Shown: positions 7,132 to 23,539 of the stretch, piece after piece | Layout of the letters: every line of letters starts with the position of its first letter | Numbering within the stretch: position 1 is the stretch's first letter | Virus genome (UHGV): UHGV-0074613 | Source of the DNA: a virus | Direction: 5' to 3' (one strand) | Length of the DNA stretch: 23,589 nt | Made by a program: the position numbers and the translations under genes | Notes under the pieces: model-generated | Database searches by the model: none | Told to the model about the DNA's origin: nothing | What the model saw: only the letters and a program-made list of their open reading frames with translations

Positions 7132-7602
7132 ATGGTAGAGCAGACCCTGAAAGAAGTAGTGAAAGCGATGTGCAAAGCATATCCCGGTGGCCGCGAGGCT
7201 ATGGCTGGTGCATTGGGCATGTCAGTAACTCAGTTCAATAACAACCTGTATGAGAAAAACGGCTGTCGTTTCTTTGAGGTAACAGAGCTGGAAGCGATGG
7301 AAGACATTTCCAACACATCGCTGGTGGCTGATTACTTTGCTAAGCGTCGTGGTGCTTTGCTGGTGGACAGGCCACTCCTGGAAGATCTGGACCGCGTTGA
7401 TTTATTCAGTCGGGCAATACGTACATCTGCGGCGCGTGGGCAGGTTGACCAAATCATTGAGCAGGCTCTGGAAGATGGGGTGATCGAGCAGCATGAAGCA
7501 GAAGAAATTATGGAACATCACCGCCGCCACCTGGCAGCACGTGAGGAAGAGATTCAGGCAATCATCACTCTTTTCGGACGTAAGAAAAGCCAAAAAAAGT
7601 GA
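7132..7602 (+). CDS. YdaT/CII-like regulatory protein
   Basis: ATG 7132 with SD AAGGA at 8-nt spacing; follows the cro-like gene as in Rac-type ydaS-ydaT pairs. Family assignment is by position and general resemblance only. Confidence 0.5.
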   Translation: MVEQTLKEVVKAMCKAYPGGREAMAGALGMSVTQFNNNLYEKNGCRFFEVTELEAMEDISNTSLVADYFAKRRGALLVDRPLLEDLDRVDLFSRAIRTSAARGQVDQIIEQALEDGVIEQHEAEEIMEHHRRHLAAREEEIQAIITLFGRKKSQKK

Positions 7603-7663
7603 CGCCAGCGAGTGTGCAGCTCCTGGCGTCGTGGCGTGTCGTTATCAAGTGGAGAACTAACGC

Positions 7664-8002
7664 ATGAACAGTGTAAACCGATTCAGACCAGTTAAGCAAT
7701 TCAGATGCCCACCGCTGGTGGGGCGTGATGCCCCGTTCGGCTATGTGGGAATAGTACGTACAGCGAACGGAAGCCACAACTACCAGTGTGGTTCAGAGAT
7801 GGTAGAGGCGTTTACTCAGATGAATGAGAAGGGGCGTGAGGAGTGGCTGAAGTTGACCGGCGATTCAGAGACCACCGTGGAATCGAAGTCAGGGTTATCC
7901 GTTGGGAGCCCGAGACCGGACGCGTTATATACCTTCGCCAAGGGTACGATCATGAGTGCTTCAGCCCTCTTGAACAATTCCAGCGTAAGTTTACAGAGTT
8001 AA
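7664..8002 (+). CDS. Hypothetical protein (112 aa)
   Basis: ORF with SD GGAGAA 6 nt upstream of ATG; sits between the CII-like and O-like genes. Confidence 0.45.
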   Translation: MNSVNRFRPVKQFRCPPLVGRDAPFGYVGIVRTANGSHNYQCGSEMVEAFTQMNEKGREEWLKLTGDSETTVESKSGLSVGSPRPDALYTFAKGTIMSASALLNNSSVSLQS

Positions 8003-8011
8003 AGGACGACC

Positions 8012-8896
8012 ATGAGCACTAAATTAACCGGTTACGTTTGGGACGCTTGCGCTTCTTCAGGCATGAAGTTGTCCAGCGTTGCCATCATGGCGCGTCTGGC
8101 AGACTTCAGCAGCGATGAGGGAGTTAGCTGGCCTTCAATTGGCACTATTGCTCGTCAGATTGGCGCTGGTGAAAGCACTGTACGCACAGCGATATCCCAA
8201 CTGGAGAAGGATGGCTGGCTTACTCGTAAACAGCGCCGCAATGGCAACCGTAACGCCTCAAACGTGTATCAACTGAATGTCGCGAAGCTTCGTGATGCAG
8301 CTTTCTCTCACCTGTCAGATTCTGACGCATCAAAATCTGATGCATCAAAATCCGACCCGTCAAAATTTGAGGCATCAAAAAACGACGATAACGGCACTTT
8401 TGACCCGTCAGAATCTGGTGGGGATCCGTCAGTAAAATCAAAACCAGAACCATCAGTTAAAAATAAAACCCCTTGTCCGGTTCCTTCGAAACCTGACGAC
8501 GTCGATTCTGATCCTGCTGTTCAGGTTCTTGACCATTTCAACCAGGTCACCGGGTCTGAATACGGTCGTGGTGGTCGTAACAAAACCACGCTGGGATACA
8601 TCCGTGGTCGTCTCGCTGAAGATTACACCGCTGATGATTTGAAACTGGTGGTGGATTATCTCAACGCCAAGTGGGCAGACGATTCGAAGATGAGTGACTA
8701 CCTGCGCCCTAAAACGCTTTTCGGCGCGGAAAATTGCACGGAGTACTTCGAGAAGGCCAAGAAGTGGCGAAAGAGCGGTAGCCCGAAATGTGTCAACGGG
8801 CGCTGGGTCAAAGAGTCTGATCCGGTCCCTGTTACTCGTGAATCCTACGATAACGTTGATTACGCACTGCCTGAGAACGCGGGGTTCCGCCAATGA
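8012..8896 (+). CDS. Replication initiation protein (O-like: N-terminal wHTH + conserved phage C-terminal domain)
   Basis: N-terminus ...SWPSIGTIARQIGAGESTVRTAISQLEKDGWL is a winged-HTH typical of phage initiators; C-terminus ...QVTGSEYGRGGRNKTTLGYIRGRLAEDYTADDLKLVVDY matches the conserved replication-protein C-terminal domain; internal iterons. Confidence 0.75.
   Translation: MSTKLTGYVWDACASSGMKLSSVAIMARLADFSSDEGVSWPSIGTIARQIGAGESTVRTAISQLEKDGWLTRKQRRNGNRNASNVYQLNVAKLRDAAFSHLSDSDASKSDASKSDPSKFEASKNDDNGTFDPSESGGDPSVKSKPEPSVKNKTPCPVPSKPDDVDSDPAVQVLDHFNQVTGSEYGRGGRNKTTLGYIRGRLAEDYTADDLKLVVDYLNAKWADDSKMSDYLRPKTLFGAENCTEYFEKAKKWRKSGSPKCVNGRWVKESDPVPVTRESYDNVDYALPENAGFRQ
8308..8382 (+). repeat. 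Iteron array (putative replication origin) inside the O-like gene
   Basis: Four 15-bp direct repeats (TGACGCATCAAAATC, TGATGCATCAAAATC, CGACCCGTCAAAATT, TGAGGCATCAAAAAA) plus one degenerate copy; followed by a fairly A-rich stretch (8440-8470). Confidence 0.6.
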
Positions 8897-9366
8897 GCAT
8901 GCTGAAAGAAGTTCAGGCCTTCCTTGCCAAAAATCCTGGGTCCGGAAGTGCGGAGATTGTGGAGGCGTTCAGCCAGTACAGCGCACGAAGTATTCAACGC
9001 ACAGTGTGCCGACTTTATGACCTGAACCGTGCTACTCGTGAAACCGTTGGTAACCGCTTTGTCTACTCAGCTGATATGCCACTGGATATGGCGAAAGGGT
9101 GCGCTTCTCCTGCAAAAGTCGTTGTTCAACAAATGCCACGACAGGTAGTTACTCATCTCATCGAAAAAGCCGATCACCTTATGAGTCGTGGACTTTATCG
9201 CCGCGCTGCCACGATGTTCATGGAAGCGTTCGAAGGGGCTGTTCATACCGAAGAGCGAGACTATTGCTTACGCCAGCGTCAGCGCTGCCTAAAGAAATGC
9301 GCAGTGGACAAAAAGCGGCAGGAGGAATGGTGTCTTGCCGGGAAGTTTTGTGGAGGTGACATGTGA
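8893..9366 (+). CDS. Hypothetical regulator, possibly PerC-like C-terminal domain
   Basis: 157-aa ORF coupled to the O-like stop (ATGA). C-terminal RGLYRRAATMF...RQRQRCLKK resembles the G-(L/Y)-WRRAA core of PerC/Pch regulators (recollection, not searched). Confidence 0.4.
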   Translation: MSMLKEVQAFLAKNPGSGSAEIVEAFSQYSARSIQRTVCRLYDLNRATRETVGNRFVYSADMPLDMAKGCASPAKVVVQQMPRQVVTHLIEKADHLMSRGLYRRAATMFMEAFEGAVHTEERDYCLRQRQRCLKKCAVDKKRQEEWCLAGKFCGGDM

Positions 9367-10031
9367 ACTACGAGCTGATTTACGCCGATCCTCCATGGTC
9401 ATACGACAACACAGCCAGCAACGGTGCAGCAGAAAACCATTATGGAACGATGAAGCTCATCGACATTAAACGCCTTCCAGTGTGGGAGCTTTCTGCTGAA
9501 AACGCCGTGTTGGCCATGTGGTACACCGGGACGCATACCCGCGAGGCTATAGAGCTGGCGGAAGCATGGGGATTCAAGGTCCGCACGATGAAGGGCTTCA
9601 CCTGGGTCAAGTTCAATCCGCTCGCGGAGAAGCACATCAACAAAGCGCTGCAGGCTGGGGGTGTGGAGGACTTTTACGATTTCCTCGACCTGTTGAACGT
9701 CCAGACCAGGATGAACGGCGGCAACCACACCCGAGCCAATACAGAAGACCTGTTGATCGCCACAAAAGGGAAGGGGTTAGAGCGCCTGAACGCCGGTATT
9801 AAGCAGGTTGTTTACAGCCCACTCGGTGTACACAGCCAAAAGCCCTGGGAAGTTCGCCACCGCTTAGAGCTACTTTACGGTGATGTATCGCGCATTGAAT
9901 TATTCAGCCGCAACGGTTCGCCAGGCTGGGACCACTGGGGCAATGAAGCGGAAAACCCTTCGGTGTTTATGGCTCCTGGTTATGTCTGTCCGGTTGATAT
10001 GCAGGATGAGGTGACCAATGCCGGGTATTGA
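9363..10031 (+). CDS. MT-A70-family N6-adenine DNA methyltransferase
   Basis: N-terminal YADPPWSY (DPPW motif); 222 aa; GTG start overlapping the upstream stop with SD GGAGG. Confidence 0.8.
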   Translation: MNYELIYADPPWSYDNTASNGAAENHYGTMKLIDIKRLPVWELSAENAVLAMWYTGTHTREAIELAEAWGFKVRTMKGFTWVKFNPLAEKHINKALQAGGVEDFYDFLDLLNVQTRMNGGNHTRANTEDLLIATKGKGLERLNAGIKQVVYSPLGVHSQKPWEVRHRLELLYGDVSRIELFSRNGSPGWDHWGNEAENPSVFMAPGYVCPVDMQDEVTNAGY

Positions 10032-16106: not shown

Positions 16107-16360
16107 GCATTACAGCAGGCATTCACTGAGTGCCTGTGATAATGTCGAATTGTGGTAAATGCGCAGGCTGATGCGCAGCGCGTGGATGTGAAGCGAAGCA
16201 AGTCGTGCCGTTGGTTCCCTGCTAAGCGCCAACGGAATTCCGGGTTCAGCACCGGATACCACACCTAATTGAATTGTCAGTGGCTAGGGTAGCTCCTGAA
16301 AAGCGGCATCGTCACCGCCTGCCACTGATAACCTGACGAACAACTAAGACGAGGTTGTAG

Positions 16361-16738
16361 ATGAATGGTGAAGAATACCGCGCTTTGATAGCCACTCTTT
16401 TTGAAGAGTTAGTAATTGCAAATGGACTGATCAAGGAAATCTGCTCGGTACGAGAAATACCGATACCTGCTGCCTCTATGAAGAGAATGGACAATGCTAT
16501 TCATGAAGCAAGACATAAAATGTCTGATGGTTTCGAAAGAGATTGGATAAGCGTTGATGAAAGACTGCCGGAAAGCAAAGAGGGTCAGTGGTCGAAAGAG
16601 GTAATCGCGCTTAGTGATACTGGTGATGTGTTCAAACTATCCTGTATGGGAACTTACTGGCAGAGAACAACAGCGTTCATTGAATCGAGTTCCAGCAAGA
16701 TTACTCACTGGATGCCGCTGATATACCCCGATGATTAA
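16361..16738 (+). CDS. DUF551-like phage protein
   Basis: C-terminal ...ITHWMPLIYPDD resembles the DUF551 THWMPLP signature; SD GAGGT; followed by a strong terminator. Confidence 0.55.
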   Translation: MNGEEYRALIATLFEELVIANGLIKEICSVREIPIPAASMKRMDNAIHEARHKMSDGFERDWISVDERLPESKEGQWSKEVIALSDTGDVFKLSCMGTYWQRTTAFIESSSSKITHWMPLIYPDD

Positions 16739-16755
16739 AACAGAATGAAAAATAG

Positions 16756-16780
16756 AGGTCGCTTAGGCGACCTTTTTTAT
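16756..16780 (+). terminator. Intrinsic terminator after the DUF551 gene
   Basis: AGGTCGC-TTAG-GCGACCT hairpin followed by TTTTTT. Confidence 0.7.
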
Positions 16781-16898
16781 TGCGCTTCGCACGCGCATAT
16801 CGAAGAGAGTCTTTCAGTAGTGAGCCTGGGTAATGCCGTTAGGTTGCGTTTACCTCTCGGGCGGCGTTGCCGTGCGACAGGCTCACGTCTAAAAGGAA

Positions 16899-18362
16899 AT
16901 GCACATGCAGGTCACAATAGATGGTGTCCCGTATGCACCTGTCAATAATTCACACTCAGCGGTAGGGATCGCCATAACTACGCATAACAGACCTGATGTT
17001 CTTAAGCGTGCCATCGAGCAGCACATGAAGCATCTTCCGTCCGGTGCGCTGGTGGTCGTCATCGACGATGGCTCAAAGCCTCCCGCTGTTGTACCGGCTA
17101 ATGTAAAACTGGTTCGTCATGACCAATCATGCGGTATTGTCGCTTCGAAGAACGCCAGCCTGACCGCACTGGTGGATGCCGGGTGTGAGCATCTCTTCCT
17201 ATGGGATGATGACGCGTGGCCCATCGCCGATAACTGGCATCTTCCCTACATCGAATCTCCCGAGCCGCACCTGGCTTACCAGTTTCTCGATCTTGCTGGG
17301 CCGAGAAAGCTTAATGATATGGCCGTGCTGTACCGGGATGATAAGCACATCGCTTACACCGGACAACGCGGTGTGATGCTGTATTACCACCGCAGCGCTA
17401 TTGAGAAGGTTGGCGGTTTCGATCCGGTTTATGGTCGCGGCATGTACGAGCATCCAGATCTGGCGCTACGCATTCACAATGCCGGTTTATCGACCTGGGC
17501 GTTCGCTGATGTGGTCGGATCTGAAAAACTGATTCATTCAATGGATGAGCACGAAGAGGGTACGCGCTCAATTCCACGACCTGACCGAGAGGCGCTGGTA
17601 AAAAGAAACGTTGGCATATTCAATGCTCGCCGTGACAGCGGTTATACAGGCTTTTCCTCTTATAGCAGAAATCCAAATCTGGTGATTACGACGCTACTCA
17701 CAAGCCAGCCAGACCCACAGCGCGGCGGAAAGATGAAACCCGACCCGCAGGTTCTGCAATCATGGGCTGACTCAATATCCGGCGCACTACCAATTGTCTT
17801 GGCTGACGAATTGAAAGAGTCGCCAACTGGTGCTGGTTTAAGTGAAGTCCCGCTGGTGGACATGAGCCCATACTTTGCTCGCTGGCTTCACATCTATCAG
17901 TTTCTACGTGCGCACCCTGAGTATCACCTTGTCTGGTGCACTGATGGTACTGACGTTGAAATGTTGCGAGAGCCCTGGGCAGAAATGCAGTCGGGTAAAA
18001 TTTACGTTGGCTCAGAGCACAAGACGTATTCCGACGAATGGATGAAAGCAAATCACCACGGCAAGGCGTATAGCGATTTCATCGAGCAACATCGCGATGA
18101 ACCACTGCTAAATGCTGGCTTGTTAGGTGGTAACCGTGAAGACGTTATGGAGTTCGCGCATCGTATCATTCGTCAGTATTACCTGATTGAAAGTCATCGC
18201 TTCTGGAAGATTGAAAGAGCGCCTGAAACGAAGGTTGATATGGGTGCATTCGGCATGGTGGCGAAGTCATTTGGAGACAAGGTTATTACCGGGCCCAAGG
18301 TTCACACCATCTTCAAGTCTGAAGGCGTTGGCAAGGAGTTGGCATGGTGGATGCACAAGTAA
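16899..18362 (+). CDS. Cytoplasmic glycosyltransferase, family 2-like GT-A domain with additional C-terminal domain (487 aa)
   Basis: N-terminal VGIAITTHNRPDVLKRAIEQ...VVVIDDGS...WDDDAW (GT2 Rossmann start and DxD-type acidic motif); no hydrophobic TM segment; C-terminal half has a second TDGTD acidic motif. ATG 16905 is the more likely start (SD AAAGGA). Confidence 0.7.
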   Translation: MHMQVTIDGVPYAPVNNSHSAVGIAITTHNRPDVLKRAIEQHMKHLPSGALVVVIDDGSKPPAVVPANVKLVRHDQSCGIVASKNASLTALVDAGCEHLFLWDDDAWPIADNWHLPYIESPEPHLAYQFLDLAGPRKLNDMAVLYRDDKHIAYTGQRGVMLYYHRSAIEKVGGFDPVYGRGMYEHPDLALRIHNAGLSTWAFADVVGSEKLIHSMDEHEEGTRSIPRPDREALVKRNVGIFNARRDSGYTGFSSYSRNPNLVITTLLTSQPDPQRGGKMKPDPQVLQSWADSISGALPIVLADELKESPTGAGLSEVPLVDMSPYFARWLHIYQFLRAHPEYHLVWCTDGTDVEMLREPWAEMQSGKIYVGSEHKTYSDEWMKANHHGKAYSDFIEQHRDEPLLNAGLLGGNREDVMEFAHRIIRQYYLIESHRFWKIERAPETKVDMGAFGMVAKSFGDKVITGPKVHTIFKSEGVGKELAWWMHK

Positions 18363-18937
18363 AGTTTGTGGTTGTTGGTCACCATCTGCGCCACAAACAA
18401 GCATTAATTCTGGCTGAGTCGATAGGTGCATTACTGCTTATCGACACGGGAGATAACGGTGCTAACTGGAATCACCGCCGCGCTCTTGAATGGGCAGAAG
18501 AGCAGTCTTGCCGAGTGGTCATTTTAGAAGACGATGCAATTCCAGTTGATGGGTTCACCAACAAACTCGTTAAGTGGATTGAGCGCTTCCCTGATGCACT
18601 GGTTTCTTTCTATCTCGGTACTGGTCGTCCTCCACAATATCAACTCGATATAGCATCAAAGCTAATCGCAGCAGATAAGAGCAGAACTGATTACATAACA
18701 CTTTCACGTCTGATCCATGGCGTCTGCTACAGCGTACCGCATCAGCATATCAAGCGAGTTCTTGATAAATGGAACCACGGCAAAGCAGCAGATTATGCAG
18801 TAGGTGATGCTTATGGTGGCCCTGTTGTTTATCCATGCTACTCGCTCGTTGACCATGCTGACGGACAGCCGGTAGAACCAGCGCGAGACAACCAGCCACG
18901 TACAGAACGCCGAAGAGCATGGAGGTTACATGTCTAA
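18344..18937 (+). CDS. Putative glycosyltransferase, family 25-like
   Basis: GANWNHRRALEWAEEQSCRVVILEDDAIPVDGF resembles the GT25 (Lic2A/LgtB-type) G..SH...W + ILEDD core; start overlaps the GT2 stop, stop overlaps the HNH start. Confidence 0.5.
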   Translation: MVDAQVKFVVVGHHLRHKQALILAESIGALLLIDTGDNGANWNHRRALEWAEEQSCRVVILEDDAIPVDGFTNKLVKWIERFPDALVSFYLGTGRPPQYQLDIASKLIAADKSRTDYITLSRLIHGVCYSVPHQHIKRVLDKWNHGKAADYAVGDAYGGPVVYPCYSLVDHADGQPVEPARDNQPRTERRRAWRLHV

Positions 18938-19298
18938 ACTAAAGACACTACAGCCACGCCTTAAAGCTATCGACACGCGGCGCATCAAACCTATCTATGG
19001 TGAGCATCGTCGAGTCAGTGGCAGTGCCAGGGTAAGCCTGAAGCGACGTATCTATGTTCGCGACGGTGGTCATTGCTGCATGTGCAAGCGAGTAGTAGAC
19101 CTGCATGACAGTGAGCTTGACCACCGCATTGCTCTACAGTTCGGCGGTGACAACGATGAGCGCAACCTTTGGACGCTGTGCATCGAGTGTCATTCAGGTA
19201 AGTCATCGCGAGAAGCATCAATGAACCAGCCTGATGGTGAGGCTCTGAAGCACTCTGTGCCGAAAGATAAATCACAATCTGGCATCGTAATTCTCTGA
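18930..19298 (+). CDS. HNH endonuclease (packaging-associated)
   Basis: CCMCKRVVDLHDSELDHRIALQFGGDNDERNLWTLCIECH is an HNH motif with zinc-binding Cys pairs; immediately upstream of the candidate cos and TerS. Confidence 0.85.
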   Translation: MSKLKTLQPRLKAIDTRRIKPIYGEHRRVSGSARVSLKRRIYVRDGGHCCMCKRVVDLHDSELDHRIALQFGGDNDERNLWTLCIECHSGKSSREASMNQPDGEALKHSVPKDKSQSGIVIL

Positions 19299-19304
19299 CC
19301 AAAC

Positions 19305-19367
19305 ACCGGGGGGGTATCAGTGGGTGTCAACGCCGATCGCGCTGGACACCGCGCCCCCTCTCACGCG
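19305..19367. other. Candidate cos/packaging site
   Basis: GC-rich block between HNH and TerS: G7 run (19308-19314), imperfect two-fold symmetry GGTGTC...CGATCG...GACACC (19323-19350), C5 run (19354-19358). Confidence 0.35.
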
Positions 19368-19398
19368 TAGAAAAAATTCCCTTTTGGAGGGTGTTAAC

Positions 19399-19881
19399 GT
19401 GTTAACAGGACAGAAGCGCAAGTTCGCACAGGCGCGGATGTCCGGTTCATCCCAGGCTGAAGCAGCCCGTAAGGCCGGTTACTCCGAGAAAACCGCAAGG
19501 TCTCAGGGTTCACGGCTGGCAAAAGACCCGGATATCATCGCTTACATTGAAAAAAATGGAGCAGGTGATAAGCCTTCAAAATTTGTTGGGCTGCCAATTC
19601 CTCCATCAGCGAAGGTGGGAAAAGATCTACCCATGGAGGTAGAGCCAGTACCGACCCTGAACAAATATGAAGATCCTCTTGAATTCCTGAAATCTGTCAT
19701 GAATGACCCAACTCTTGAACTTGATGACAGAAAAGACGCAGCGAAGGCGATGCTTCCATACATTCATCAGAAAAAAGGTGAGGGTGGGAAAAAGGAAGCG
19801 AAAGGCGCAGCCGCAAAAAATGCAGCCAATAAGTTTGCCGTTCCTGCACCGCCGAAACTTGTTGTAAACAACCGGGGGTGA
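19399..19881 (+). CDS. Terminase small subunit
   Basis: HTH-containing N-terminus KRKFAQARMSGSSQAEAARKAGYSEKTARSQGSRLAKDPDIIAYIE typical of small terminase subunits; GTG 19399 with SD GGAGGG; directly upstream of TerL. In-frame GTG at 19324 gives a longer alternative. Confidence 0.75.
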   Translation: MLTGQKRKFAQARMSGSSQAEAARKAGYSEKTARSQGSRLAKDPDIIAYIEKNGAGDKPSKFVGLPIPPSAKVGKDLPMEVEPVPTLNKYEDPLEFLKSVMNDPTLELDDRKDAAKAMLPYIHQKKGEGGKKEAKGAAAKNAANKFAVPAPPKLVVNNRG

Positions 19882-19884
19882 TTA

Positions 19885-21543
19885 ATGCCAGAATGGACTA
19901 CAGCATGCCCTGACTGGAGTGAACGACTTAAGCGCGGTGATTCGATAATTCCACCACCGATTTATCCTGAACAGGCAGAGATAGCGCTTAATATTTTCAA
20001 GCAACTGAAAATAGTTGATGCGCCAGGCTCTCCAACGTTTGGTGAGTCGTGTGCCAATTGGGTGTTTGATCTGGTTGCGGCGCTTTTCGGTTCGTACGAT
20101 GCCGAAACAGGAAGGCGGCATATCACGGAAGTTTTCGTACTAATACCGAAAAAAAACAGTAAATCTACACTTGCTGCCGGAATTATGATGACGGCACTGC
20201 TTCTCAACTGGCGACAAGCTGCCGGCTACACAATTATTGCCCCAACTGTAGAAGTAGCAACGAACGCATTTAACCCCGCTCGCGATATGGTTAAGCGTGA
20301 TGATGACCTTGATGATCTTTGCCAGGTACAAACCCATATTAGGACCATTACTCACCTGGTGAGCGATACCACGCTGAAGGTTGTTGCAGCAGATGCAAAC
20401 ACTGTTTCTGGGATTAAATCAGTAGGAACGCTGATTGATGAACTTTGGCTATTCGGAAAGCAGGCAAATGCGGAGGATTTACTTCGTGAAGCGATAGGTG
20501 GTTTGGCATCTCGTCCTGAAGGATTCGTGATGTACACTACTACGCAATCAAACGAACCTCCAGCCGGTGTTTTTAAACAAAAACTTCAGTACGCTCGCGA
20601 CGTTAGAGACGGGAAAATTATTGATCCAAACTTTCTTCCCGTTATTTTCGAACACCCGCCAGAAATGGTTGCCAACGGCGATCACCTTCTTCTTGAAAAT
20701 ATGCCGATGGTTAACCCTAACTTGGGGTATTCGGTCGATGAGCAGTTTCTTAATCGTGAGTTTAGGAAAGCCAAAGAAGCAGGAGAAGAAGCATTTCGTG
20801 GATTCATGGCAAAGCACGCGAACATAGAGATTGGTTTGGCGTTACGTGCTGACCGATGGGCAGGTGCTGATTTCTGGGAGCAACAAGCAGAAAGGGTAAG
20901 TTTTGAAGAAATTATTCAACGCAGCGAGGTCATCACGGTTGGTATTGATGGTGGTGGTCTTGATGACCTACTTGGACTGTCAATAACCGGCAGAGATAAA
21001 GACACGCGAAAATGGATATCCTGGAGCCATGCTTGGGCCCACGAAATTATGCTTGAACGCCGTAAAAGCGAGATATCGAAACTGCGTGATTTTGAAAAGG
21101 CCGGAGACTTCACCATTGTGAAGCGAGTTGGTCAGGACACAGAGCAAGTTGCAGAGTACGTCAGCAGAATTTATGAAGCTGATTTGCTGGATAAGATTGG
21201 TATTGACCCGGCAGGCGTTGGGCAAATTCTGGATGCACTGGTTGAGGCAGGAATCCCTCCTGAACTGGTAGTCGGTATCAGTCAGGGCTGGCGACTTGGC
21301 GGCGCGATAATGACTACCGAGCGAAAACTTGCTGAAGGCGTCCTGATCCACGGCGGTCAGCCGATGATGGCCTGGTGCGTTGGTAACGCAAGGGTAGAAC
21401 CTAAGGGTAACGCCATCCTGATTACCAAGCAGGCCAGTGGGAAGGGGAAAATTGACCCCCTTATGGCGCTATTTAATGCCGTCTCGTTAATGGCACTGAA
21501 TCCAGAGGCGAAGAAACAAGATTACCAGGTATTTTTCATATAA
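19885..21543 (+). CDS. Terminase large subunit
   Basis: 552 aa; Walker-A-like PKKNSKST; size and position immediately after TerS; SD GGGGGTGA. Confidence 0.85.
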   Translation: MPEWTTACPDWSERLKRGDSIIPPPIYPEQAEIALNIFKQLKIVDAPGSPTFGESCANWVFDLVAALFGSYDAETGRRHITEVFVLIPKKNSKSTLAAGIMMTALLLNWRQAAGYTIIAPTVEVATNAFNPARDMVKRDDDLDDLCQVQTHIRTITHLVSDTTLKVVAADANTVSGIKSVGTLIDELWLFGKQANAEDLLREAIGGLASRPEGFVMYTTTQSNEPPAGVFKQKLQYARDVRDGKIIDPNFLPVIFEHPPEMVANGDHLLLENMPMVNPNLGYSVDEQFLNREFRKAKEAGEEAFRGFMAKHANIEIGLALRADRWAGADFWEQQAERVSFEEIIQRSEVITVGIDGGGLDDLLGLSITGRDKDTRKWISWSHAWAHEIMLERRKSEISKLRDFEKAGDFTIVKRVGQDTEQVAEYVSRIYEADLLDKIGIDPAGVGQILDALVEAGIPPELVVGISQGWRLGGAIMTTERKLAEGVLIHGGQPMMAWCVGNARVEPKGNAILITKQASGKGKIDPLMALFNAVSLMALNPEAKKQDYQVFFI

Positions 21544-21601: not shown

Positions 21602-23539
21602 ATGAAGCTTGACCGCGCATGTACCATCATGACGGTGAAAGCGGTGGATGAGGATAAACGGATTATCACCGGCATTGCCTCCACACCATCACCAGACCGT
21701 GACGGCGACATTATGGAGCCTGACGGCGCGAAGTTTGGCAGTGAAAACCCGTTTTTATGGCAGCACGACAGGTCTCAGCCCATCGGTAATTGCTCGGCGA
21801 AAAAGGTGAAAGAGGGGCTGCAAATTACAGCTCAACTTGTTAAGCCAACACCTGATATGCCATCGCAGCTGGTGGCCAGACTTGAAGAAGCGTGGGCATC
21901 AATTAAGTCAGGACTTGTAAAAGGTCTGTCGATTGGTTTTAAGCCCATCAAATACGCTTATCTCGACTCTGGCGGCATTCAATTCCTCGAATGGGAGTTA
22001 CTAGAAGTCTCTGCCGTAACCATTCCCGCTAATTCTGAGTGTTCAATTCAGACAGTTAAATCTTTTGACCGCCAGTTACTCGCCGCGCTTGGCAATGAGA
22101 AACGCGTGGTTAAAGCAAATCAATCCGCTGGCGCTACAGCACAAAAACAAACTTCTCAAAAAGGAAAACCAACGATGAATATCGCTGAACAGATCAAAAG
22201 TTTTGAAAACAAGCGTGCAGCGCTGGCCGCTTTACTGAATGACATCATGAGCAAAGCTGCTGATGAAGGTCGCACTCTGGATGTAGAAGAAACTGAAAGC
22301 TACGACAACACCTCTACGGAAATCAAATCGGTAGACGAACACCTGAAACGCCTTCGTGACATGGAAGCCAGCATGGCATCAACCGCGAAGCCGGTGACCA
22401 AAACTGCAAACGGTGAAGTTACTGTGATTAATAACGGGCCGTCCATCATTCGCGTAGAGCCGAAACTGGAAAAAGGTATCGCTTTTGCCCGTTTCGCAAA
22501 GTCACTGGCCGCTGGTAACGGTAGCCGATCTGAAGCCCTGCAGATTGCGAAAAACCAGTATCCTGATGACACTAAACTTCATCATGTCCTGAAAGCGGCG
22601 GTTAGTGCCGGTACTACTACAGACCCGACCTGGGCTGGCGCACTGGTAGAATACCAGGATTACGCACAGGACTTCGTTGAATTCCTGCGTCCGCAGACCA
22701 TTATTGGTCGCTTTGGTCAGGGTAATATCCCTTCTCTTCGTCAGGTTCCATTCAACGTTCGTATTCCAGCGCAAACCTCAGGCGGTTCAGCAAGCTGGGT
22801 AGGTCAGGGTAAAGCAAAACCTCTGACTAAATTTGACTTTGCCACCATCACCTTCGGTTTCTCCAAAGTGGCATCTATCGCAGTGTTGACCGAAGAACTG
22901 ATCCGCTTCTCTAACCCATCTGCTGATGCTCTGGTGCGAAATGCACTGGCAGAAGCGGTGATCGCGCGACTGGATACAGACTTCATTGACCCTGCTAAAG
23001 CGGCGGTCGCTGATGTTTCTCCGGCATCTATCACCAATGGCATCACTGCTATTCCTTCTACCGGTGATCCTGATACTGATGCTTCTGCAGCATTTGGTCA
23101 GTTCATTACGAACAACCTGCAGCCGAATGGTGCGGTATGGCTGATGTCCAGCACTACGGCACTTACTCTGTCTATGCGTAAAAACGCGCTTGGTCAGAAA
23201 GAATACCCGGATATGACCATGCTGGGCGGTACGTTCCAGGGCTTGCCGGTGATCGTTTCACAGTACGTTGGCAACCAATTGGTACTGGTTAACGCACCAG
23301 ATGTTTATCTGGCAGATGATGGTGGCGTCGCCGTTGATATGTCTCGCGAAGCTTCTCTGGAAATGCAGAGCGCTCCGACCCACGACAGCACAACGCCAAC
23401 TCCAGTTGAATTGGTTTCGATGTTCCAGACTAACAGCGTGGCAATTCGTGCTGAGCGCTGGATTAACTGGAAACGCCGCCGTGATGCAGCCGTAGCTGTT
23501 ATTTCTGACGTTGATTACAGCACTGGTTCAACCAGCTAA
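21602..23539 (+). CDS. Fused prohead protease (HK97/S78-like) - scaffold/delta - major capsid protein
   Basis: N-terminus ITGIASTPSPDRDGDIMEPDGAKF...FLWQHD...PIGN...LSIGF resembles HK97-family prohead protease; followed by an Ala/Gln-rich linker, a coiled-coil delta-like segment and about 400 aa of capsid-like sequence; SD GGAGGA. Confidence 0.7.
   Translation: MKLDRACTIMTVKAVDEDKRIITGIASTPSPDRDGDIMEPDGAKFGSENPFLWQHDRSQPIGNCSAKKVKEGLQITAQLVKPTPDMPSQLVARLEEAWASIKSGLVKGLSIGFKPIKYAYLDSGGIQFLEWELLEVSAVTIPANSECSIQTVKSFDRQLLAALGNEKRVVKANQSAGATAQKQTSQKGKPTMNIAEQIKSFENKRAALAALLNDIMSKAADEGRTLDVEETESYDNTSTEIKSVDEHLKRLRDMEASMASTAKPVTKTANGEVTVINNGPSIIRVEPKLEKGIAFARFAKSLAAGNGSRSEALQIAKNQYPDDTKLHHVLKAAVSAGTTTDPTWAGALVEYQDYAQDFVEFLRPQTIIGRFGQGNIPSLRQVPFNVRIPAQTSGGSASWVGQGKAKPLTKFDFATITFGFSKVASIAVLTEELIRFSNPSADALVRNALAEAVIARLDTDFIDPAKAAVADVSPASITNGITAIPSTGDPDTDASAAFGQFITNNLQPNGAVWLMSSTTALTLSMRKNALGQKEYPDMTMLGGTFQGLPVIVSQYVGNQLVLVNAPDVYLADDGGVAVDMSREASLEMQSAPTHDSTTPTPVELVSMFQTNSVAIRAERWINWKRRRDAAVAVISDVDYSTGSTS

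Follow-up and report, generated by a model that had tools for sequence, protein, structure and literature searches.

The DNA analysed here is a stretch of 23,589 nucleotides (nt) from the UHGV virus genome UHGV-0074613 (the window); it corresponds to the left half of a lambdoid prophage. The module region at positions 16781-19298 carries two overlapping glycosyltransferase (GT) genes, named GT-A and GT-B in the following, that run on into an HNH endonuclease gene. We propose that the two enzymes probably form a cytoplasmic, late-expressed cassette that O-glycosylates the C-terminal tails of the major capsid and tail-tube proteins. The cassette likely represents the enterobacterial counterpart of the system acting in the mycobacteriophages Che8, Corndog and Myrna, whose capsid and tail-tube subunits are reported to be glycosylated (PMC12363180, PMC11600133, PMC11652166). 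Virion proteins are favoured as targets, because GT-A and GT-B are orthologous to virion-glycosylation enzymes and because a C-terminal Gly-Ser or Thr-Ser dipeptide, here called the [G/T]-Ser tag, is specific to capsid and tail-tube proteins. In the original prediction for this region, virion proteins, phage DNA and the lipopolysaccharide (LPS) core stood side by side as unranked targets; the first is now clearly favoured, whereas the other two are poorly supported.

The first line of evidence is orthology. GT-A aligns over its full length with gp100 of the Cluster F mycobacteriophage PMC (44% identity, blastp E 1e-138). Searching 50,697 phage genomes with GT-A by tblastn resulted in matches in 606 phage records, 568 of them mycobacteriophages, and the Cluster F phages showed full-length matches of 43-45% identity (E ~1e-120). 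GT-B is similar to Che8 gp110 (37% identity over 191 amino acids (aa), E 5e-30), PMC gp103 (36%, E 2.5e-27) and Corndog gp38 (31%, E 8e-17). Judged by these alignments, PMC gp100 is orthologous to GT-A over the full length, and Che8 gp110, PMC gp103 and Corndog gp38 are orthologs of GT-B. At the right end of the Che8 genome, three GT genes (gp108, gp109, gp110) are followed by gp111, the HNH gene gp112, cos, and then the genes for the small and the large terminase subunit. The right end of PMC reads gp100 (the GT-A ortholog), gp101, gp102 (a kinase), gp103 (the GT-B ortholog), gp104 (HNH-like) and cos. As far as alignments and gene order tell, the window module is orthologous in content and position to an experimentally characterised virion-glycosylation cassette. 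The enzymes of the mycobacteriophage cassette are described as O-glycosylating capsid and tail-tube proteins, by which the virions are shielded from antibodies (PMC11600133, PMC11652166), and the GT-B orthologs Che8 gp110 and Corndog gp38 are reported to be required for capsid glycosylation (PMC12363180, citing Freeman et al.). The earlier statement that no function is established for this module is true for enteric phages, whereas the orthologous module has been established experimentally in actinophages.

Both proteins are soluble glycosyltransferases according to fold and orthology to PMC gp100 and Che8 gp110, as had been proposed. GT-A (16905-18362, plus strand; 485 aa) is a tandem double glycosyltransferase with an AlphaFold2 model of high confidence (predicted local distance difference test, pLDDT, 93), and the acidic motifs are invariant in both domains. 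The N-terminal domain (aa ~20-245) carries the motifs DD54-55 and DDD101-103, the C-terminal domain (aa ~259-485) the motifs D347xxD350 and N403/G405. The latter domain had been noticed before as an extra C-terminal domain and turned out to be a second domain of the GT-A fold (the structural class, not to be confused with the protein GT-A). It is recognisable as such by its fold alone: no Pfam family was found for it, and the idea that it is a sequence duplicate of the N-terminal domain was rejected (hhalign probability 0.6). Together with GT-B (18344-18937, plus strand; 197 aa; motif E62-D63-D64), the cassette comprises three soluble GT-A-fold catalytic domains. The previously highlighted motifs are all in place: in the 487-aa reading of GT-A, VVVIDDGS lies at aa 52 and WDDDAW at aa 102, and GT-B has ILEDDAIP at aa 60.

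The searches that were informative for the identity of the two proteins were those against PHROGs and the tblastn search of phage genomes. GT-A belongs to phrog_1579 (E 7e-230) and GT-B to phrog_854 (E 3e-70), labelled glycosyl- and glucosyltransferase, respectively, and both families are filed under 'moron, auxiliary metabolic gene and host takeover'. Pfam, NCBIfam and the PDB gave sub-threshold or empty results. The Pfam GT2 match (PF00535) of the GT-A N-terminal domain falls below the gathering score, NCBIfam returned weak matches to EpsD and a rhamnosyltransferase, Pfam contained no match for GT-B, and no PDB sequence matched GT-A or GT-B. The profile and structure searches suggested in the original prediction thus brought out GT-A folds and GT families of PHROGs, but no Pfam GT2 assignment above threshold and none to GT25. 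The label GT25-like for GT-B (CAZy GT25, Pfam Glyco_transf_25) was rejected at the sequence level, since no family profile matched. A seroconversion cassette of the GtrABC type had been dismissed from the outset, and we agree: neither protein contains a transmembrane-like segment (maximal 19-residue Kyte-Doolittle mean 0.98 in GT-A and 1.15 in GT-B), and no gtrA-like gene is adjacent.

The category given by PHROGs also speaks for another reading, in which the enzymes are lysogenic-conversion morons that alter an envelope glycan of the host (the LPS core, the O-antigen or another) and so cause a superinfection block or a serotype change. Morons classically occupy the slot between lysis and packaging genes, a terminator lies ahead of the unit, and GT-A-fold enzymes of the GT2/GT25 type are often found in LPS or exopolysaccharide synthesis, with which the weak EpsD and rhamnosyltransferase matches would agree. 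The expression signals, however, point elsewhere. GT-A and GT-B belong to the Q-dependent late operon, where they are flanked by the lysis genes on one side and the HNH/terminase genes on the other. A bidirectional intrinsic terminator 3' of the DUF551 gene (16754-16775; 9-bp stem and T run on the plus strand, with a mirror site on the minus strand) forms the upstream boundary of the cassette. No terminator was found between GT-A and HNH, and no sigma-70-like promoter was found on the plus strand from 16738 to 19300. GT-B starts 19 nt ahead of the GT-A stop, with an AAGGAG Shine-Dalgarno sequence at 18333-38, and the HNH gene (18930-19298, plus strand) starts 8 nt ahead of the GT-B stop (ATGTCTAA), with GGAGG at 18921-25. 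Phage ECP1 and an E. coli prophage have the same 19-nt overlap. Because the pair has neither its own promoter nor a downstream terminator and the overlaps run into the HNH/terminase operon, GT-A and GT-B are predicted to be expressed together with the late and structural genes, i.e. late and in the lytic cycle and not in the lysogen. The overlapping GT-GT-HNH reading frames between the DUF551 terminator and the terminase block, and the presumed co-expression with packaging and head genes, had been read in the same way before.

Further points count against a lysogenic-conversion moron. The proteins lack transmembrane segments, a GtrA-like flippase and a membrane-bound GtrC partner, and the pair is near-universal in two capsid lineages, whereas morons are sporadic. 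It also occurs in phages of Mycobacterium and Cellulosimicrobium, which do not possess LPS, and the orthologs are reported to modify virions (PMC12363180). Remodelling of the host envelope is in our view very unlikely to be the role of these enzymes.

The second line of evidence is found at the C termini of virion proteins. The Ser/Thr-rich capsid tail YSTGSTS had been remarked upon in the original prediction, and this remark became the key clue to the target. The capsid protein of the window is a 645-aa fusion of prohead protease and major capsid protein (21602-23539, plus strand; Pfam Peptidase_S78 and Phage_capsid on the identical protein), the predicted glycosylation substrate. It ends ...DVDYSTGSTS, and the tail YSTGSTS with its terminal Thr-Ser (23516-23536, plus strand) is the predicted O-glycosylation acceptor tag. 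For a survey of such tails we used 80 loci with the window capsid family and 80 loci with the HK97-type capsid, which is that of the cassette-bearing coliphages ECP1 and mEp390; the 3246 plus-strand open reading frames (ORFs) of the 160 loci were clustered blindly into 385 families. The tag terminates 79/79 window-type capsids, 78/79 HK97-type capsids and 72/72 HK97 gp6-like head-tail adaptors. Among the tail tubes it was found in 71/71 of the 156-aa family, 32/36 of the 165-aa family and 8/8 of the 150-aa family, compared to 20 of ~2880 (0.7%) among all other ORFs. These six virion families (two capsid, three tail-tube, one adaptor) hold 340 of the 360 C-terminal [G/T]-Ser cases; terminal [G/T]-Ser is almost exclusive to capsid, tail-tube and adaptor families.

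The composition of the tails is also informative. While the bodies of the window-type capsids (n=79) are 78-96% identical, their last ~7 residues are hypervariable and rich in S, T, G, N and Q, invariably ending in [G/T]-S (variants include YSTGATS, YSSGQTS, YGTTQTS, YGAGAGS and YGSNQGS). In the tail ...YGAGAGS, the terminal Ser is the sole hydroxyl-bearing residue of the variable part. HK97-type phage capsids end SSGS. In Che8 and PMC, the capsids end ...NKTGS and the tail tubes ...YSDGS, and no other of the 12-14 structural proteins ends GS. The pairing of the terminal dipeptides of capsid and tail tube (GS/GS 25, TS/TS 18, TS/GS 10, GS/TS 0) is suggestive of covariation; this pattern is confounded by relatedness and was not used as evidence. 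As a separate observation, a non-structural family of 81-91 aa encoded upstream of the cassette ends ...ESGS or ...EAGS in 6 of 11 members (e.g. locus L015, 4355-4630; L022, 4618-4863; L061, 4289-4534); no other non-virion family shows such an enrichment.

After the survey, the rule was tested on distant loci, i.e. unrelated contigs with GT-A homologs 38-58% identical to that of the window. In L177 the capsid ends ...GGGAGS and the tail tube ...KVSGS. The capsids of L178 and of L180, a Cellulosimicrobium prophage whose capsid is of a different family, end ...SSGS, that of the actinophage-like L179 ends ...PDATS, and the tail tube of L182 ends ...FGEGS. No further protein with a [G/T]-S end was found in these five loci. 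Taken together, no fewer than five capsid families without relation to each other, and five families of tail tubes, bear the tag in hosts that range from Enterobacteriaceae to Actinobacteria, each time alongside the cassette.

The linkage between the enzymes and the tag can also be followed from the side of the genes. Both GTs are present in 61/62 window-type and 48/51 HK97-type capsid loci with enough upstream sequence, and the cassette is near-fixed in two large lineages of enterobacterial temperate phages. Homologs are widespread: GT-A forms >1000 and GT-B >1800 protein clusters (90% identity) in Citrobacter, Enterobacter, Salmonella, Klebsiella, E. coli and others. HK97 and HK022 carry an HNH gene 99-100% identical to that of ECP1, and the GT genes are absent. 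The untagged 165-aa tail tubes (...VVTP) lie in HK022-like loci in 4/4 cases; L095 was directly seen to be GT-less, and HK022 itself is without the cassette. The sole untagged HK97-type capsid (...FSAD) occurs in the GT-less L108.

Several observations weigh against virion glycosylation by the cassette or limit its support. For enteric phages, the proposal rests wholly on homology and sequence patterns, and many of the phages behind the linkage counts are close relatives and hence phylogenetically non-independent. Only 50 nt of the window follow the capsid gene, so that the prophage's own tail tube lies outside it, and the GT-A fold of GT-B is predicted at moderate confidence (model pLDDT 67). 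Furthermore, the capsid tag is kept in GT-less HK97/HK022-type phages (including L095) and in the deletion variants L043 and L138, and the adaptor tag is also kept in those GT-less loci where the HK97-type adaptor is present (EEGS in HK97 and HK022). An Ig-domain variant of the tail tube is untagged though encoded in GT-positive loci. In L182 (8537-12153), GT-A is followed by an overlapping second GT gene of 243 aa that is not a GT-B homolog, and the capsid candidate ends ...PEAS, i.e. Ala-Ser. The tag is not strictly dependent on the enzymes, and the covariation of presence and absence is only partial. Tag retention in GT-less phages could reflect recent module exchange or loss, because the capsids of GT-less and GT-positive phages share 99-100% identity. 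The exceptions fit module exchange or loss together with some motif flexibility, yet the inference falls short of proof.

The same exceptions could be taken to mean that the enzymes act on something else, such as a host protein, a small molecule or a non-structural phage protein, e.g. in anti-defence, and that the [G/T]-Ser tails are an unrelated ancestral feature of the structural modules. HK97, HK022, L095 and L138 indeed have tagged capsids and adaptors without the enzymes, the linkage could result from co-inheritance in mosaic lineages, and the 81-aa non-structural family upstream of the cassette ends GS in 6/11 cases. This explanation is difficult to reconcile with a tag that accompanies the cassette on so many unrelated capsid and tail-tube families over a background of ~0.7%, with untagged tail-tube and capsid variants found specifically in GT-less phages, and with the reported necessity of the orthologs for capsid glycosylation (PMC12363180). 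We regard a target outside the virion as unlikely.

A third possibility is DNA hypermodification, i.e. the enzymes glycosylate bases of the phage genome at packaging and thereby allow evasion of restriction. The GT genes adjoin the packaging genes, phage GTs acting on 5-hydroxymethylcytosine or 5-hydroxymethyluracil DNA are described (bioRxiv 10.1101/2023.12.21.572611), and the window contains an MT-A70 methyltransferase gene. However, the 23.6-kb window, the left half of the prophage, holds no gene for a cytosine-5 methyltransferase, a TET/5mYOX enzyme or a deoxynucleoside monophosphate hydroxymethylase, and its sole DNA-modification gene is of the N6-adenine type (MT-A70). Moreover, HK97-like relatives with and without the pair are otherwise near-identical, the orthologs act on proteins, and the C-terminal tags of capsid and tail tube would be left unexplained. 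A function in DNA modification appears extremely unlikely.

Under the favoured reading, O-glycosylation of virion proteins, the enzymes would act in the cytoplasm during late infection and use nucleotide-sugar donors. GT-B would recognise the free C-terminal [G/T]-Ser tail and attach the first sugar, probably on the hydroxyl group of the terminal Ser; it is assigned the initiating step because no other component is shared by the Che8, PMC, Corndog and enteric cassettes. The Che8 glycans are reportedly attached at the C terminus (Freeman et al. 2023). The bifunctional GT-A would then add two further sugars, resulting in a short O-glycan that may be borne by several hundred copies of capsid and tail-tube proteins per virion. 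Replacement of GT-A by other GTs in different lineages (Che8 gp108/109, Corndog gp36/37) would diversify the glycan. By analogy with what is reported for Che8, the likely benefit would be shielding of the virion surface from antibodies, proteases or adsorption sinks.

The original prediction regarded the pair as welded to the HNH gene and proposed its conservation in relatives as a check. The GT-GT-HNH order is frequent without being obligatory: in L177 and L182 the pair lies among head-tail genes, in L178 and L180 it precedes small ORFs and the terminase, and the HNH gene occurs without the pair in HK97 and HK022. In a 299-kb record (MN871453, L183, 'UNVERIFIED_ORG' Serratia phage KpZh_LPS_45), GT-A (56%) and GT-B (44%) homologs are encoded side by side at 6001-8030 without an adjacent HNH or terminase gene. 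GT-A is also matched by several Klebsiella, Serratia and Cronobacter phage records. An insert between GT-A and GT-B was found in 47/109 loci. Such inserts were considered as extra glycan enzymes and this was rejected; they are HNH homing endonucleases (phrog_3593; L001, 7617-8129; L004, 9779-10360; L168, 4086-4673; about 45 further loci). The GT-A/GT-B junction looks like a homing site, at which inserts break the 19-nt overlap. Directly upstream of GT-A, at least 25 loci encode proteins of 260-310 aa from families of unknown function (phrog_16910, 17079, 13555, 29765; e.g. L170, 2502-3284; L150, 1873-2709; L004, 7113-8006; L005, 5938-6876). They share a C-terminal '...LKPGG...' motif, one has tail-fibre-like stretches, and they are absent from the window. 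The interpretation of these '...LKPGGLLY...' ORFs as sugar methyltransferases, as in Corndog and Che8, was dropped, since their PHROG families carry no functional label. In the 649-aa protein P0412, a GT-B-type domain spans residues 447-641, and GT-B may here be naturally fused with a different domain.

The remaining features of the window complete the picture of the locus. The nearest relative is from Citrobacter freundii, with a GT-A of 97% identity. From left to right come the genes for integrase, CI-like repressor, replication genes, MT-A70 methyltransferase, KilA-N, DUF968 and Q antiterminator, followed by holins, GH19 endolysin, spanins, DUF551, GT-A/GT-B/HNH, the terminase small (TerS) and large (TerL) subunits and the capsid fusion. 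The MT-A70-family gene of the N6-adenine type lies in the early region (9363-10031, plus strand), and a tRNA gene (5669-5741, minus strand) between the early-left genes and the repressor. DUF551 is encoded at 16361-16738 (Pfam E 5.6e-10), and Rfam gave a match to the small RNA int-alpA just upstream of this gene (16277-16339, plus strand; 41.8 bits compared to a gathering score of 35.8). The HNH endonuclease, of the packaging type of HK97 gp74 and 122 aa long, matches Pfam HNH (E 4.5e-7) and phrog_589 (E 8e-34) and is weakly similar to Che8 gp112 (E 1.6e-6). TerS is placed at 19399-19881 (plus strand; Pfam Terminase_2 E 9e-9, phrog_641 E 6e-52); its mechanical ORF begins at GTG 19324, and gene callers on identical contigs begin at 19399 or 19438. 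The ~100 nt 3' of HNH that the later TerS starts leave (19299-19398) may hold cos. TerL extends from 19885 to 21543 (plus strand), with Pfam TerL_ATPase and TerL_nuclease recorded for the identical gene in L174. The public contigs with an identical capsid (L174, L175, L176) all stop ~100 bp past the capsid gene, like the window (end 23589), which suggests a recurrent assembly break between capsid and portal genes, possibly at a repeat or variable region.

The 5' end of the cassette deserves a comment. GT-A is listed as an ORF at 16899-18362, which corresponds to the 487 aa originally given; its true start is almost certainly ATG 16905, because the resulting 485 aa agree with homologs and independent gene calls and an AAGGA Shine-Dalgarno sequence lies upstream (16893-97). 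The region between the terminator and GT-A (16776-16904, plus strand) is a structured leader that ends in the Shine-Dalgarno sequence and ATG of GT-A and is conserved in >70 loci. There it measures ~115-130 nt and lies directly 5' of the first post-terminator gene, whichever gene that is. It is present twice in L033, L035 and L059 and occurs also in the GT-less L095, in HK639 (annotated 'terminator'), phi80, mEp237 and an E. coli Nissle prophage (95%). The leader has a fold z of -3.6, and a consensus helix pairs UCUUU with the Shine-Dalgarno sequence AAAGG, which suggests that it may exert translational control. It had no match in Rfam, and its stems are nearly invariant, so that covariation is uninformative.

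We found no report of virion glycosylation of enterobacterial or HK97-like phages in the searchable literature. Freeman et al. (2023) reportedly saw little evidence for it in the broader phage population. Phage virion glycosylation is demonstrated only for a few mycobacteriophages so far. Papers from 2024-2026 still describe it as a feature of 'some actinobacteriophages'. New here would be a Gram-negative, HK97-like cassette, an acceptor rule at the sequence level and a tractable E. coli test system. In its most general form, for which we see an even chance, the free C-terminal [Gly/Thr]-Ser would be a portable, genetically encoded glyco-tag with the small, hitherto uncharacterised soluble GT-A-fold family of GT-B/Che8 gp110 as its reader. 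Virion glycosylation would then be common in temperate phages of Enterobacteriaceae, including HK97-like coliphages on E. coli K-12, and would extend to actinobacterial prophages and the 299-kb phage record, with capsid, tail tube and head-tail adaptor being coated. If so, many gut phages would be glycan-coated, and their particles would expose sugars to mammalian immunity and to mucus. This would matter for how antibodies recognise them, for their clearance and for their contacts with mucus, hence for phage therapy. The proposal would be directly testable in E. coli K-12 with ECP1 and mEp390, for which HK97 and HK022 represent natural GT-less siblings as controls. Moreover, the tag and enzyme pair would be a minimal candidate for cytoplasmic glycoengineering in E. 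coli with few appended residues, and the 'moron / host takeover' label of two widespread PHROG families would be corrected.

Among known systems, the pilin O-oligosaccharyltransferases TfpO/PilO and TfpM are alike in that they modify a highly abundant structural subunit at its C-terminal Ser (or Thr), as listed in Table 1 of PMC12645811. They are polytopic membrane proteins that transfer a pre-assembled lipid-linked glycan en bloc in the periplasm, whereas the soluble GT-A-fold enzymes GT-A and GT-B, unrelated to them in fold and sequence, would presumably act stepwise from nucleotide sugars. The capsid or fibril glycosylation of chlorovirus PBCV-1 (A64R) and mimivirus (R655/R699) by virus-encoded GT-A enzymes is similar at the fold level only; in these giant viruses of eukaryotes the linkages are N-linked or atypical, and a C-terminal tag is absent. 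GtrABC of the temperate enteric phages SfV and P22 also consists of phage-encoded GTs in enterobacterial prophages with a GT2-type catalytic domain. Its components (flippase, bactoprenol-phosphate GT, serotype-specific GT) are membrane proteins expressed in the lysogen near attP/int, whereas the pair in the window is soluble, predicted to be late-expressed and located beside packaging genes.

The mycobacteriophage cassettes are much closer. In Corndog (Cluster O), gp35-gp38 comprise an O-methyltransferase and three glycosyltransferases, of which gp38, the GT-B homolog, is the one reported essential. The cassette likewise lies within the late/structural region and the capsid ends ...PLVGS; it is located between the portal/protease region and the capsid gene and not beside HNH, its other two GTs are not GT-A orthologs, and the methyltransferase has no equivalent in the window. 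The Cluster F cassettes of PMC and Che8 (Freeman et al. 2023, Cell Host Microbe 31:1216) differ from the window in several respects. Here a lambdoid/HK97-like phage lives in a Gram-negative enterobacterium, its protease is fused to a major capsid protein without sequence relation to Che8 gp6, the module lacks the methyltransferase domain of Che8 gp108 and the kinase PMC gp102, the GT genes overlap, and glycosylation is a prediction. Nevertheless, these cassettes share with the window the same slot directly ahead of HNH, cos and terminase, at the right end of their genomes, three GT catalytic domains overall, and a capsid and tail tube ending in Gly-Ser.

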